A program made the translations under genes and the position numbers. A DNA stretch of 64,000 nt from Alphaproteobacteria bacterium (GTDB lineage: Bacteria > Pseudomonadota > Alphaproteobacteria > Paracaedibacterales > CAITNM01), in contig CANJXJ010000002.1 of assembly GCA_947478955.1 (NCBI GenBank), forward strand, positions 1,926 through 65,925, given 5' to 3'. Below are positions 52,199 to 59,982 of the stretch, one piece after another; within the stretch, counting starts at the first letter, position 1; every line of letters starts with the position of its first letter. The notes beneath the pieces are model-generated. The model made no database searches. It was not told the origin of the DNA and worked only from the letters and a program-made list of their open reading frames with translations.

Positions 52199-55078
52199 AT
52201 GATAAATCTTCTTTTTTTTATAACATTTTCTATTTTTTCACTGCATGCGAGAAATTTAACACCTCTTACTCATGAAGAAGTTAAGCATTGTCGTGTATTA
52301 AATGCTTCCTTAATTCGCGCTTCTAAAGGTGCATCATCTTACGATGCTGTAGGTCTATTAGAATTATGCAGGCAAGAGCTTGAGTATAGAAACACAGGCT
52401 GTGTTTGCCCTCTAGGAGATCGTATTGAATATTTTTCAAGACTAAGCGCAGCAGTTAGTTTAGGTCTTGGTTTCGACGCGGGAATTCTTAAGACCCCTAT
52501 GAATGCAACTGAAGCTGGTATATTTAAAGCGGTGGCGAGATTACTAGGAAATCAGCTGCAGAGAGCAGTAGCCTTTGTTACTTTAGCTGATGCTTCCCGT
52601 AGTTTTGAGCGTACTCATTTGCAAGGATTTGATAATGCACTAAGGACAGGAACCCTAAGAGGGCAGCACACAATTGACTTAGGAAAAGCTGCAGCAGAAA
52701 AGGTTGACGCTTCATTAAGGGCCAAGTTGGCTAGGGAATATGCTGATCTTGGTAGGGTTAACACTTATGATCAACCTTTTGAGGTAGCGCTTTTAGTAAA
52801 AGTTATTGGAGCCGTTCCTGCATACTCTGCAAGATTAACTCGTTTTTTGGATGATACATTACCAGCGAATAGATCACGCCTCAGTTTGGTAACACAACAA
52901 TTTTTAAGGCTATTACCTACAATCGCAGCAGACTACATAACATCAGAAAATTTAGGGGACTGCTTAGATGTACTTAGGGATGTAGATCAGGAGCGCGTTC
53001 CCGTGTTATTGACTGCGCTTGGACGAATAGCAAATCTTGCAAGAACAGGCGGATTTATATTTAATACGGAAATGGTTTCAGGTGTACTGCGTAAATTAGA
53101 GGGAATGCGTGTAGATAATATAGTTGACGAACTAGATTCCATTGCTCGAAATTTTCCAAGGTTGCATCCCAATCGTTTCCCAGATTTTTCGAAGTACATA
53201 GCTACAGAACGAGATCCGGATCGAAAAGCGCAATTTCGGGAATCGCTTCGAGCTGCTGTTGCTGGAGATGCTTCTGACCAAATGATTGAAGCAATAACAA
53301 TGCTGTGTGGAAGACAGAATTTATTTAATCGAGTTCCTCTAAGGATTTTCAGTCGCTTTTTTGCAAAATCCATCACAATGGTAAAAGATGCTGTTCGGCC
53401 AACAGAAAAACTAGCCGTTGTTGACAGCTTACAGCGATTGGTGGGACGAAGGATATTGGAAATACTTCCTGAAGAGTACATTATGCCAGATGGAATGTTA
53501 GAAGTGCAGATGCGCCAGTTTGCTGGAATTTTGAGATGTGCTGAAACCTTAAGCGATGTAGAAGTTGCCGCTGCTAGAGTTGTTGATAGGGTTTCCCCAA
53601 AACAACGGTTTAAAGATAATCTATCTCTTTTGCTTGAGGCTCCTGAGGGTGATGGATATGATGATGAAACTGGTGAGCCTTTAGAGGCTGATGATCGACT
53701 CAAAGATGATCGGCCCGCACGTTTGCGATTAATTGCGAATTTATCACGACCAACTACAAGCCAATTTCCTGATGCATTAGTTATGGTTATAAACCAGGTG
53801 GTAGAGAGAGAGAATGTAACAGCTTATTCCATAAGTGAAGATAAATTAAATGGGATTGAAGCACTTTTATCGTTAGGACAAGATCCTTGTGACATAGCTA
53901 GTATGATAATGCAAGTATACCAATTGTCAGAAGAATTTGTGGGGCGTGAACCGGTAGCAAGACTTGCTGAAAGAGTGTATGATCGTATCTTTTTTAATGA
54001 TGCTCTTCCTGCTGATTTTCGTAATCATAGCCACTTAAATTTTGCGGTGGCTCGCTTGAATTATCCAGCTGCTGAACAGAATGCAATGCTTGAGGAGTAT
54101 GTTTATAATCATCGGGTGGTTCTAGAGGAATCCCGAAGAGAACAAGCTAGGCGCGCGGGCGTACAAATTGCTGAGGTTGCAGATGCAGGGCGGCGTGTGG
54201 AATTAAGAACAGTTGGCTGTATGGCAGTTCACCGAATTGGGGCATTAATTTGTAATCCTTTAGAGAATGCCTTAAATGCAGTATTAATAGCTAGAGGGCT
54301 GATACCTGCTGGAGTGCCAGCTGCTCAGGCTACATTGGCGCGATGGATCGAAGAATATGGTACTATTGATCGTATCGATCGTTCTGCTGCGGCTATAGCT
54401 CATGAAGAGGAAGATATTACGAATGCAAAGGTTCGTTATCGGGCCGTTTTGGCAAAGGCTTTAAACCCTGGATATGCCTATCGTGCTGATTTTGATAGGA
54501 TATTATCCAAGGTTGTTTCATACATAGGCGTGAAAGATAAGCAAGAACGAGATGCATGGCTTGTGAATAGTTTAGGCGAAGCGTCGCAGGCGTATGAGGG
54601 CACATCTGTCGCTGGGAATTTAAGTTGTGACAAAGGAATTTGGGAAAGACTGCTGCTTGGTCTTAAGAATCAAACTCAAAGAGAGTTTGATAATATTCTA
54701 GCTGTTATTGATTTGGGAGATTTGGTGACCAATTCCTTTAACACGATGCAAGTGCTCAGATCTCCAGGTATGGATGGACGTGGTGTGATGGTTCAAGCAA
54801 GTAAGCTTTGGGATTTGTGGGAACGTGCACGTCCTGCTACAGCTCCTGTGGCGGTAAGAATTTGGACAGAGGCTATTAACCAAATGCGTGCAGCAACAAC
54901 GGCAGAAGTTATGGAATTGTTGAGATCATCTCGCTATCTTGGTGATGCTGAAGCTCCTCTTAGACAGAATTTCTTGGAGCATACAAATAATACAGCTGAT
55001 CGTATAATAAGAGACTGGAGAGATGGAATTGAAGGTTTATTTGCGCAGTATCAGCGTATTAGAGCAGGCCGTTTTTAG
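52199..55078 (+). CDS. Hypothetical 959-aa protein with an N-terminal hydrophobic leader; R/A/L-rich and compositionally distinct
   Basis: It is a single long ORF starting MINLLFFITFSIFSLHA. I recognised no domain. The amino-acid usage is Arg-rich, whereas neighbouring proteins are Lys-rich. Confidence 0.7.
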   Translation: MINLLFFITFSIFSLHARNLTPLTHEEVKHCRVLNASLIRASKGASSYDAVGLLELCRQELEYRNTGCVCPLGDRIEYFSRLSAAVSLGLGFDAGILKTPMNATEAGIFKAVARLLGNQLQRAVAFVTLADASRSFERTHLQGFDNALRTGTLRGQHTIDLGKAAAEKVDASLRAKLAREYADLGRVNTYDQPFEVALLVKVIGAVPAYSARLTRFLDDTLPANRSRLSLVTQQFLRLLPTIAADYITSENLGDCLDVLRDVDQERVPVLLTALGRIANLARTGGFIFNTEMVSGVLRKLEGMRVDNIVDELDSIARNFPRLHPNRFPDFSKYIATERDPDRKAQFRESLRAAVAGDASDQMIEAITMLCGRQNLFNRVPLRIFSRFFAKSITMVKDAVRPTEKLAVVDSLQRLVGRRILEILPEEYIMPDGMLEVQMRQFAGILRCAETLSDVEVAAARVVDRVSPKQRFKDNLSLLLEAPEGDGYDDETGEPLEADDRLKDDRPARLRLIANLSRPTTSQFPDALVMVINQVVERENVTAYSISEDKLNGIEALLSLGQDPCDIASMIMQVYQLSEEFVGREPVARLAERVYDRIFFNDALPADFRNHSHLNFAVARLNYPAAEQNAMLEEYVYNHRVVLEESRREQARRAGVQIAEVADAGRRVELRTVGCMAVHRIGALICNPLENALNAVLIARGLIPAGVPAAQATLARWIEEYGTIDRIDRSAAAIAHEEEDITNAKVRYRAVLAKALNPGYAYRADFDRILSKVVSYIGVKDKQERDAWLVNSLGEASQAYEGTSVAGNLSCDKGIWERLLLGLKNQTQREFDNILAVIDLGDLVTNSFNTMQVLRSPGMDGRGVMVQASKLWDLWERARPATAPVAVRIWTEAINQMRAATTAEVMELLRSSRYLGDAEAPLRQNFLEHTNNTADRIIRDWRDGIEGLFAQYQRIRAGRF

Positions 55079-57835: not shown

Positions 57836-58152
57836 CTGAAATTGAAAATGCAAATAGTAATGCAACATAGCCAATTTCTTAAATTTTTTCGAGCGTTTCT
57901 ATTGAATTTATTTTTTTATTTTTCTAGGTACGCCTTAAATGAAGCGTAAAGCAAATTTAAACAGTGTTAATAGGTTTTTAATTTTTGTGATTCATACTGA
58001 AAATGAAACAACTGTTGAAGTAACGTAAGAAAATGAAAATTACAAACCAAAAACTCAAAATTAACGCTGGTTTGTGCGTCATGGTAATTCGCATTATGGC
58101 ATGATTTTCACGATTTAGCGTGACTTCACCAGCAAAGGTAGCGGAGGAAGTC

Positions 58153-59982
58153 ATGATACATAGGTTTTTTTTAATAATTCTTATTACGGTTGTTAACCTA
58201 ACGACGACCTTAAAAGCCACGGATATTTATCCAGATAACCTCCCTGATTTATTTTGGGAGCTGCGAGAACACTTTTATAAACAGCTAGCAAAACCTTCGG
58301 CTACAAAGGCAAACTTTCAAACTGAAATATGTCAATTTGTTAGAGTGTGTGATTATATTTCTTCTGAATCAATTTTGAGGTCTAATCTTCGTAATGATTT
58401 TGAGAAGTATGTGCCAATTCTGACTACTGCTTCTAAGGTTGATATTTTAAGCGCTCTAGACGGTCTAGAAGAAGGAGCTAGACTAGCTTGCGATGATTTT
58501 TACTCTACACGCCCTATACCTGGGTATATCCCAGCAGTAGCTTCAGACATACTGCATGAAGCGGCAAGCATGTATCCAAGCAATATTTCAAGTTATTTTT
58601 GGGTTGCGCGTGACTATTTTTATGATCTAGTCGGATTTGAAGAATCTACTCCAAAAGAACTTCGTAGTGCTTTATGTGAATTCATTAGTGTTGGTGACTA
58701 TGTAGCTTCAGAACCTTTCATGGTAACGACATTACGAGAAGATTTTAGGTTGTTTGCTACTAAAAAGGGGATTGAACAGAAAAGGAAAGAAGAAGTATTA
58801 GGCGTTTTATCAGAACTGGAAGCATTAAATGTTTATACGGTTAGGCCAATACCAGGATATAGCCCTCTTAAAACAGCTGCCGATGCAGCGCAAAGCAATC
58901 TTTTTTTGAAAACGCTTTTGGAACGTATTGTCAAACAGCAGGCTTTAATTGCTGAAGCTAAAGCTTTTATGGGAACTGCCTTTGGCGACCTTTTGACTCC
59001 CACAGAAATAGCCACTCGTCTTAAGGTAACCATCCGGGGGCAAGATGCAGCCATGGACGCCTTGGGACTTATTGGCCATAAAATTATGGCGCAAATTCGT
59101 TTAAAACAGGCGGACTCAGAATGGGAGTTTCGTCCACCTCACGCATTTTTGGTTGGAAGATCAGGTTGTGGTAAAACGCAATCAATTATTGAATTGTGCA
59201 AAATTATTGGGATTCCTTGGGTTAGGGTAAATGCGCCTGAAGTTGTTGGTGAAGGATTCAAAGGACCGACTTTATCTTATTATTATGAACAGTTAAAACA
59301 ATTAGGAAAAATCCCTCCCTACGCCATTGTGCTATTAGACGAAGCAGGAAAAATGGGCAAAACAGGTTCTGGAGATGATGCACCAAAATACGGGGGCAGT
59401 ATTATGAGAACATTGCTAGCTCATATGGACGGAGCACCGGTAAAATTGCCAGTAGGAGCATCAGGAGTCGAAGAAGCAATGTCTACCAGTTGCTTTACGT
59501 ATCTTGCAACTGATGCTTGTGCTCATGTACCTGATTCAGTGGAGTTAACTGCAGAAGCCTTAAGCCATCATACTGGAATGCCGCTAGAATTAGTCAATCG
59601 ATTTAGTCAAGGAATTATCAAATTACGTCCTCATACAACAGCTAGCTTGGTTGATATTTTGAAAAACAACCCTAAGGGACCTTATGCTCACGAAGTTAAG
59701 TTTTTCAAAAAGATGTACAGTATGGATTTAGTAATTGAAGATGAAGGGCTAAAAGCTATAGCTGCTAGATCAATTGAAGATTCAACAGGAGCGCGTAAAC
59801 TTGAAGAAATGCTGGTGCATATATTGGCACCACTGTATGATATAGATCACTTACCAGCCGGGGTACTTACAGATGTTGATGGTGTTCGAAAGATTACTAT
59901 AACGAAAAAATTTGTTGAAGCTCATTTGCCACCACCTGCTGAAAAGACAGATGATGGGCCACCTTTTGGTATGTACGTTTAG
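58153..59982 (+). CDS. ClpX/HslU-like AAA+ ATPase with an N-terminal hydrophobic leader and a duplicated novel N-terminal domain
   Basis: The ATG at 58153 follows GGAGGAAG. Walker A is GRSGCGKT (59155-59178) and Walker B is IVLLDEAGK. The pore-loop-like motif is GEGFKG and the sensor-2-like motif is STGARKLEE. Two repeats of about 100 aa precede the ATPase domain. Confidence 0.75.
   Translation: MIHRFFLIILITVVNLTTTLKATDIYPDNLPDLFWELREHFYKQLAKPSATKANFQTEICQFVRVCDYISSESILRSNLRNDFEKYVPILTTASKVDILSALDGLEEGARLACDDFYSTRPIPGYIPAVASDILHEAASMYPSNISSYFWVARDYFYDLVGFEESTPKELRSALCEFISVGDYVASEPFMVTTLREDFRLFATKKGIEQKRKEEVLGVLSELEALNVYTVRPIPGYSPLKTAADAAQSNLFLKTLLERIVKQQALIAEAKAFMGTAFGDLLTPTEIATRLKVTIRGQDAAMDALGLIGHKIMAQIRLKQADSEWEFRPPHAFLVGRSGCGKTQSIIELCKIIGIPWVRVNAPEVVGEGFKGPTLSYYYEQLKQLGKIPPYAIVLLDEAGKMGKTGSGDDAPKYGGSIMRTLLAHMDGAPVKLPVGASGVEEAMSTSCFTYLATDACAHVPDSVELTAEALSHHTGMPLELVNRFSQGIIKLRPHTTASLVDILKNNPKGPYAHEVKFFKKMYSMDLVIEDEGLKAIAARSIEDSTGARKLEEMLVHILAPLYDIDHLPAGVLTDVDGVRKITITKKFVEAHLPPPAEKTDDGPPFGMYV

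Follow-up and report, generated by a model that had tools for sequence, protein, structure and literature searches.

AAA+ unfoldases are regarded as cytoplasmic machines. In HslU the C-terminal tail docks on the peptidase ring, and PAN, Rpt2/3/5, Mpa and Cdc48 are proteasome activators that bear a C-terminal motif named HbYX. Torsins are eukaryotic, Clp-related AAA+ proteins that stand behind a cleavable signal sequence and reside in the lumen of the endoplasmic reticulum, an ATP-containing compartment other than the cytosol. Here we examined a gene in a 64,000-nucleotide stretch of an alphaproteobacterial genome (Paracaedibacterales; contig CANJXJ010000002.1 of assembly GCA_947478955.1), referred to below as the window. 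Its stop-free open reading frame (ORF), at 58153-59982 of the forward strand, encodes a protein of 609 amino acids, P0001. P0001 is one of three paralogues in its genome and belongs to a lineage-specific family found across the order. Each member that we examined has a leader, then a variable N-region and an AAA+ core, and finishes with a flexible tail whose last residues are [M/L]-[Y/F/W]-x. This combination of a ClpX-derived motor, an export leader and a proteasome-activator-like tail suggests that the family works outside the bacterial cytoplasm. From the sequences, we give a probability of about one half to the reading that P0001 is a Sec-exported, ClpX-derived unfoldase that would use host ATP, choose its targets by a variable N-domain and dock by its tail on a ring-shaped partner.

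Profile searches assign the C-terminal 330 residues of P0001 to the AAA+ superfamily, nearest to ClpX and then to HslU. Pfam AAA matches residues 332-431 (E 1.9e-9), and the best of 32 PDB sequence matches at E <=0.01 are ClpX chains (E 1.3e-9). Likewise, the best NCBIfam matches are ClpX and HslU, both far below cut-off: P0001 scores 56 bits against the ClpX model NF003745 (cut-off 359), 40.4 bits against TIGR00382 (370.75) and 32 bits against the HslU model TIGR00390 (362.45). These searches support the ClpX/HslU-like module that the initial annotation had proposed by eye, and each motif it had named was located in the protein (RGQDAAMDAL at residues 295-304; GRSGCGKT, GEGFKG, VLLDEAGK and TGARKLEE in Table 1). 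P0001 shares with ClpX the box before Walker A, the large and small AAA+ domains, the arginine finger and the GAR of sensor 2. Walker A and B, pore loop, arginine finger and sensor 2 are invariant across 11 divergent family members (alignment A2) and align with the ClpX of the same genome. The pore loop reads GFKG, GYKG or GIKG in the Finniella clade and GYVG or GYIG in more distant members.

Alignment of P0001 and its two paralogues with the genome's own ClpX and HslU revealed no zinc-binding domain, RKH loop, IGF loop or I-domain in any of the three. The N-terminal C4 zinc-binding domain of the own ClpX is absent from them; a gap of ~20 residues stands where ClpX has its IGF loop (GSGIGFG); there is no equivalent of GGRKHPQQE, the RKH loop; and the ~130-residue I-domain insertion of the own HslU has no counterpart. 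The loss of the zinc finger and of the ClpP-docking (IGF) loop, claimed by the initial annotation, is therefore confirmed. P0001 differs from ClpX furthermore in its pore-1 loop, which is G-F-K-G where ClpX has G-Y-V-G, and in the leader, the new N-domain and the C-terminal M-Y-x tail that it adds. With HslU it shares the absence of an IGF loop, a free C-terminal tail and the N-terminal box; however, its M-Y-x follows a longer proline-rich linker, whereas the own HslU ends in SRFIL. In a tree of AAA+ cores with the tails trimmed, the leader-bearing proteins form a clade nested among zinc-finger ClpX proteins, and HslU falls outside (a quick search with a single HslU outgroup; Shimodaira-Hasegawa-like approximate likelihood-ratio support 85-97). 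The tree thus places the module with ClpX.

The leader of P0001, MIHRFFLIILITVVNLTTTLKA, is conserved in orthologues whose gene call extends to the N-terminus, so the signal-like leader noted earlier holds. Its n-region carries a charge of +1, residues 5-20 are uncharged, small residues stand before TDIYP, the conserved predicted start of the mature protein, and the net charge over the next 20 residues is -2. We parsed the leaders of 35 distinct family members. The n-region is +1 or +2 in 31 of these; the remaining four scored 0 because our crude parser assigned their whole N-terminus to the h-region, and three of the four still have K or R close to the N-terminus. All 35 have a hydrophobic core, 10-24 residues long and interrupted by polar residues, and the 20 residues that follow the leader have a net charge between 0 and -5 (negative in 33, 0 in two). 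By eye, the -3/-1 sites read LKA, VAA and IIA, and ten further proteins from other family-level groups of the order have the same layout. By this parsing the leaders have the positive n-region, short h-region, small -3/-1 residues and non-positive mature start of Sec signal peptides, and such a leader is found in every full-length family member inspected. We also considered Tat export, given the R-K/H-R before F-F-L, and rejected it, as inspection by eye shows a very short n-region that lacks a twin arginine. P0001 has no L-x-x-C lipobox, so a lipoprotein was rejected as well.

The position of the ribosome-binding site indicates that the leader is translated. A Shine-Dalgarno sequence lies directly upstream of the leader ATG in P0001, and GGAGG or GAGG occurs at the same spacing in paralogues and orthologues (22 of 23 gene copies examined). 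A longer frame from GTG 58120, which has no Shine-Dalgarno site, is therefore unlikely.

At the other end, P0001 carries a proline-rich tail, of which residues 601-609 are disordered in an AlphaFold2 (AF2) model of the full-length protein; this model is poor (predicted local distance difference test, pLDDT, 60.3; 10 sequences) and was used solely for secondary structure and tail disorder. The penultimate tyrosine is invariant in the 11 rows of alignment A2. Among 224 distinct sequences matched by the family profile, 64 end in [MLIVF][YFW]x, including none of 47 zinc-finger sequences and none of 17 proteins with multiple AAA+ modules; conversely, the CxxC...CxxC pattern occurs in none of the 64. 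Position -2 of these tails is M, L, I or F throughout (M in 55) and position -1 is Y in 57, F in five and W in two, while the last residue varies (L, T, I, V, S, M, N). In the genome at large, nine of 1403 crude ORFs end in [MLIV]Yx, and three of the nine are the P0001 family. At the level of sequence, the family tail is the HbYX motif: a hydrophobic residue, tyrosine and any residue. P0001 resembles the HbYX activators in being a predicted hexameric AAA+ unfoldase with a flexible C-terminal tail of this form. It differs from them in belonging to the ClpX/HslU-type clade rather than the classic clade, in lacking an N-ring of OB and coiled-coil elements, and in coming from a bacterium that has HslV and no 20S proteasome. 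To torsins P0001 is likened by description only, as an AAA+ protein behind a signal sequence outside the cytosol; by the same description, torsins are eukaryotic and have neither an arginine finger nor an HbYX-like tail. A recent preprint describes HbYX as hydrophobic-Tyr-any residue and as letting proteasomal ATPases enter the pockets of the alpha-ring (bioRxiv 10.1101/2025.05.27.656411).

Some matches of the profile have a different build. P0019 and P0025-P0033, from metagenomes, are ClpX-like proteins without a zinc finger that contain two or three tandem AAA+ modules and no tail, and some of them have long hydrophobic N-terminal segments.

Between leader and core, P0001 contains a duplicated helical domain with repeats of ~105 residues. 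Residues 23-139 and 140-258 are homologous by hhalign of the orthologue alignment (probability 99.8%, E 1.1e-29, 32% identity over 102 columns), which confirms the two tandem repeats of about 100 residues that the initial annotation had described, at the same positions. An AF2 model of the N-domain alone consists of two four-helix units (pLDDT 82.8; predicted template-modelling score, pTM, 0.83). Searches with this model yielded no convincing relative, in line with the earlier suggestion of a novel domain: Foldseek found no PDB match at E <=0.001 (best TMq 0.29), the best hits of a wide VIA-align search against representatives were generic helical bundles (Z 6.4, below the helical noise level stated for the tool), and the ESM Atlas gave no neighbour above TM 0.32. 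Likewise, Pfam has no match in the N-regions of 11 family members, and among shorter proteins the N-domain has three matches, all of them fragments or a split orthologue. Failed searches with a predicted model are no proof of a new fold. Type III secretion gatekeepers (YopN/TyeA, SepL, InvE, CopN, MxiC, BopN) make up six of the 50 best structural rows for the N-domain model, at Z 5.0-5.9, which is within helical-bundle noise.

The N-domain evolves faster than the motor, with a mean pairwise identity of 60-62% for the repeats versus 85% for the AAA+ large domain. Both parts are under purifying selection: the ratio of non-synonymous to synonymous substitutions (dN/dS) is 0.03-0.29 in each, with dS saturated for distant pairs, and no positive selection was seen in these comparisons (dN/dS <=0.29). 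One pair of alleles, P0001 and P0002, is 100% identical at residues 1-30 and 211-609 and 40-66% identical at residues 31-210 (window 58243-58782). A contig from an RNA library departs from the window exactly at nucleotide 58783, the same boundary at which the two alleles diverge. Together, the mosaic alleles and the contig break point to N-domain cassette exchange.

The gene was found in freshwater and lake metagenomes of 14 studies; a scan of metagenome contigs yielded two loci, too few for a population analysis. Short contigs of four metatranscriptome libraries match 59226-59794, in the 3' half of the gene, at >=99% identity. RNA-library contigs cover 58783-58821 and 59226-59794 only and none lies on the flanks. 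As the RNA runs were selected by the P0001 gene and are represented by contigs, expression level and transcript ends are not readable from them, and the contigs are a weak hint that the gene is expressed. A promoter and terminator scan at the gene gave nothing above shuffled sequences.

We then compared the family across related genomes. The two paralogues in the same genome are 543 and 549 residues long and 31-32% identical to P0001, in the AAA+ half only. Full-length P0001 orthologues (60-71% identity) are present in seven of the 13 other genomes of the genus and paralogue-type copies in all 13, with a copy number that varies within the genus. In one relative, three members lie in tandem on one strand (locus L040, G007:C40:19500-26500), with different N-regions and the tails GMYM, HMYI and GMYI. 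A profile of the AAA+ half, run against 1.84 billion representatives, gave ten proteins above 350 bits, and at lower scores a continuum that merges with ClpX. In the order (62 genomes), members of the high-scoring clade come from a single family-level group, all 14 other genomes of which have them, and more distant leader-bearing copies are found in at least two further family-level groups. Variable copy number, differing N-regions with no Pfam match, a fast N-domain and mosaic alleles together give the family a host-facing flavour. The genomes of the relatives are named Candidatus Finniella, Candidatus Odyssella or uncultured Alphaproteobacteria; Finniella species, according to a 2025 review (PMC11909080), live in the cytoplasm of cercozoan amoeboflagellates and ciliates. 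Our literature search found no paper that describes such a ClpX-like family with leader and tail, nothing relevant was seen in the part of the PMC8163844 supplement at hand, and PADLOC gave no defence-system match for P0001. New here are the membership of the family, the leader shared by its full-length members and the HbYX-matching tail of those that bear one. The initial annotation had recognised core, leader and repeats and had overlooked the paralogous family, the conserved tail and the genome's own clpX, hslU and hslV.

The gene keeps its place in the genome. The order lipA-DUF3576, the gene, NAD kinase-phosphofructokinase (PFK) is conserved over 12 orthologous loci, with NAD kinase and PFK at all 12 and DUF3576 and lipA at 11 (at the twelfth, L091, the sequence does not extend upstream of the gene). 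With 61-70% identity, the gene is less conserved than most of its neighbours (lipA 91-95%, NAD kinase 75-84%, PFK 75-87%). In a sister genus, the positional orthologue (locus L022, G014:C28) is a protein of 399 residues with leader, short linker, AAA+ core and the tail IYS, and without the repeats; the duplicated N-domain was thus either gained later or lost in the sister genus. Gene calling divides the orthologue of one relative into two proteins, P0168 (240 residues, the N-domain) and P0012 (358 residues, the AAA+ part). Both have the longest-contig value 14634 and so probably lie on one contig; the split may be a frameshift, a pseudogene or an assembly error.

The genome encodes a canonical ClpX elsewhere (660 bits), a point that the initial annotation had proposed for checking, together with HslU and a single HslV. 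P0001 is thus an addition to the housekeeping machinery and not a replacement. HslV is the sole PF00227 match of the genome, which thus lacks a 20S proteasome, so any 20S partner would be the host's. Two genomes of the same genus (G004 and G006) have two hslV copies each, against one here. The genome also encodes a TLC-type ATP/ADP translocase (566.6 bits). TLC-type carriers are inner-membrane proteins; thus, with relatives that are endosymbionts, host ATP must pass the outer membrane and enter the periplasm, and an ATPase exported by this organism poses no paradox. The initial annotation had called an ATPase behind a Sec-like leader a paradox, since the periplasm holds no ATP; that premise fails in a bacterium that carries a TLC translocase and whose relatives are cytoplasmic endosymbionts of protists. 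Of the two solutions it offered, an N-terminally anchored cytoplasmic unfoldase and a protein for the host cytosol, both are kept as candidates below, and the periplasm, which it omitted, is added to them.

According to the export reading, the leader would serve as a Sec signal peptide and be cleaved off after TLKA. Folding and ring assembly of the mature protein would take place where host ATP is available: in the periplasm of the bacterium, itself resident in host cytoplasm, or, should another step of secretion follow, in the host cytosol. Targets would be selected by the duplicated four-helix N-domain and threaded through the pore of the ring, and the C-terminal tails would hold the ring on a ring-shaped partner, much as the tails of HslU bind HslV and HbYX tails bind 20S proteasomes. 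Several points weigh against this proposal. To our knowledge, an exported bacterial AAA+ unfoldase is without precedent, and the presence of ATP in the periplasm is something that we infer. The leader call comes from our own inspection of n-, h- and c-regions. Hydrophobic N-termini are common, and a crude leader rule flags 451 of the 1403 ORFs of the genome, about a third, so the weight of the leader evidence rests on its conserved layout; furthermore, a Kyte-Doolittle 19-residue window over residues 2-20 averages ~1.75 by hand calculation, a value that an uncleaved anchor could also have. Eight cysteines occur in P0001, of which six are invariant; Cys339, within Walker A, is replaced by Ser in some orthologues. 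Together with the DsbB encoded in the genome, these cysteines fit a reducing compartment better than an oxidising periplasm. Two secretins occur in the genome, as does one GspE/MshE-type ATPase, but an assembled type II system or operon, VirB4 and a complete outer-membrane secretion route were not recognised in it. Type VI systems do not use Sec leaders. No partner of the tail was identified, and no conserved neighbouring gene offers a candidate. A type VI system is reported as typical of the group in the review PMC11909080.

The cysteines would suit an unfoldase tethered to the inner membrane and facing the cytoplasm, held by an uncleaved N-out/C-in anchor, with tails that dock on HslV as an FtsH-like two-component protease with interchangeable N-domains. 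Such a machine would have the only proteasome-family peptidase of the genome at hand, it would resemble HslU in having a free C-terminal tail and no IGF loop, and N-terminally anchored AAA+ proteins, Msp1 and Bcs1, exist in eukaryotes. The leader charges, however, are the reverse of those expected for N-out, positive or zero before the core and negative or zero behind it in all 35 members, and the uncharged span of P0001 is just 16 residues long, the last six of them polar. The M-Y-x tail is unlike the SRFIL of the own HslU, tail-bearing genes never lie beside hslV, and the tree groups the family with ClpX, all of which makes the tethered protease unlikely. The Sec-type leader, the ATP that the TLC translocase implies for the periplasm and the failure to identify a complete secretion route would all fit a strictly periplasmic unfoldase or chaperone, running on host ATP that enters via porins, which would remodel or extract envelope proteins or imported host proteins, with a periplasmic protease or a PDZ-type domain as possible partners of its tail. 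We regard this version as possible, yet doubtful: the cysteines together with DsbB sit uneasily with an oxidising periplasm, PDZ ligands require a fixed hydrophobic last residue where the tails of the family vary, and variable N-domains, tandem expansion and mosaic alleles look more like the marks of a protein that interacts with the host.

The most far-reaching alternative is a secreted effector: exported by Sec and released into the host cytoplasm, its hexamer would dock by its HbYX-type tails on the host 20S proteasome, open the gate and feed in host proteins chosen by the N-domain. We consider it distinctly improbable. If true, the bacterial protein would stand in for the 19S cap and bring about ubiquitin-independent destruction of chosen host targets, and paralogues that differ in their N-regions would direct one kind of machine against different targets. 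At the opposite end, the very low scores against the ClpX and HslU models (56 and 32 bits) and the split gene of one relative could indicate a ClpX paralogue that is decaying or non-catalytic and lacks any function of its own. However, purifying selection acts on both halves of the protein, the catalytic motifs are invariant in 11 divergent members, synteny is conserved and the family is kept in all other genomes of its family-level group; decay is thus extremely improbable.

Table 1. Features of the P0001 gene, with positions in the window.
Feature	Positions	Strand	Basis or remark
Shine-Dalgarno GGAGG	58143-58147	+	5 nucleotides upstream of ATG 58153
Leader, residues 1-22 (MIHR / FFLIILITVVNLTTTL / KA, then TD)	58153-58218	+	Sec-type n/h/c layout
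N-domain repeat 1, residues 24-129, four-helix unit	58222-58539	+	hhalign; AF2 N-domain model
N-domain repeat 2, residues 140-239, four-helix unit	58570-58869	+	hhalign; AF2 N-domain model
Linker, predicted long helix, residues 240-278	58870-58986	+	AF2 full-length model: helix 242-275, low confidence
AAA+ large domain, residues 279-493	58987-59631	+	Profile and PDB matches, family alignment, alignment with own ClpX and HslU
Walker A GRSGCGKT, residues 335-342	59155-59178	+	
Aromatic pore-1 loop GEGFKG, residues 366-371	59248-59265	+	
Walker B VLLDEAGK, residues 393-400	59329-59352	+	
Arginine-finger position R483	within 59596-59604	+	
AAA+ small (lid) domain, residues 494-590	59632-59922	+	Profile and PDB matches, family alignment
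Sensor-2 motif TGARKLEE, residues 545-552	59785-59808	+	
Proline-rich C-terminal tail HLPPPAEKTDDGPPFGMYV	59923-59979	+	Ends M-Y-V (59971-59979), HbYX-like

Two further observations concern other genes. Upstream in the window, at 52199-55078 of the forward strand, lies an ORF of 959 residues with the signal-like leader MINLLFFITFSIFSLHA and no Pfam or PADLOC match, which may be another exported protein of unknown function. Elsewhere (locus L093:5887-7946, G000:C3), two adjacent ORFs each match part of an autotransporter beta-domain, with DsbB nearby; the pair looks like a split autotransporter gene.

With a Sec-type leader on an intact motor of the ClpX type, ATP-driven unfolding would reach into the envelope or the host cell in bacteria fuelled by host ATP. 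The conserved Hb-Y-x tail amounts to a docking hypothesis that can be tested with peptides, for which HslV, a periplasmic ring and the host 20S proteasome are the candidates; if the partner is the host proteasome, the family would be a new class of effector. Even when read conservatively, the family marks an intracellular lifestyle of the Holosporales type and is a clear case of ClpX losing its adaptor and ClpP contacts and gaining new ends.

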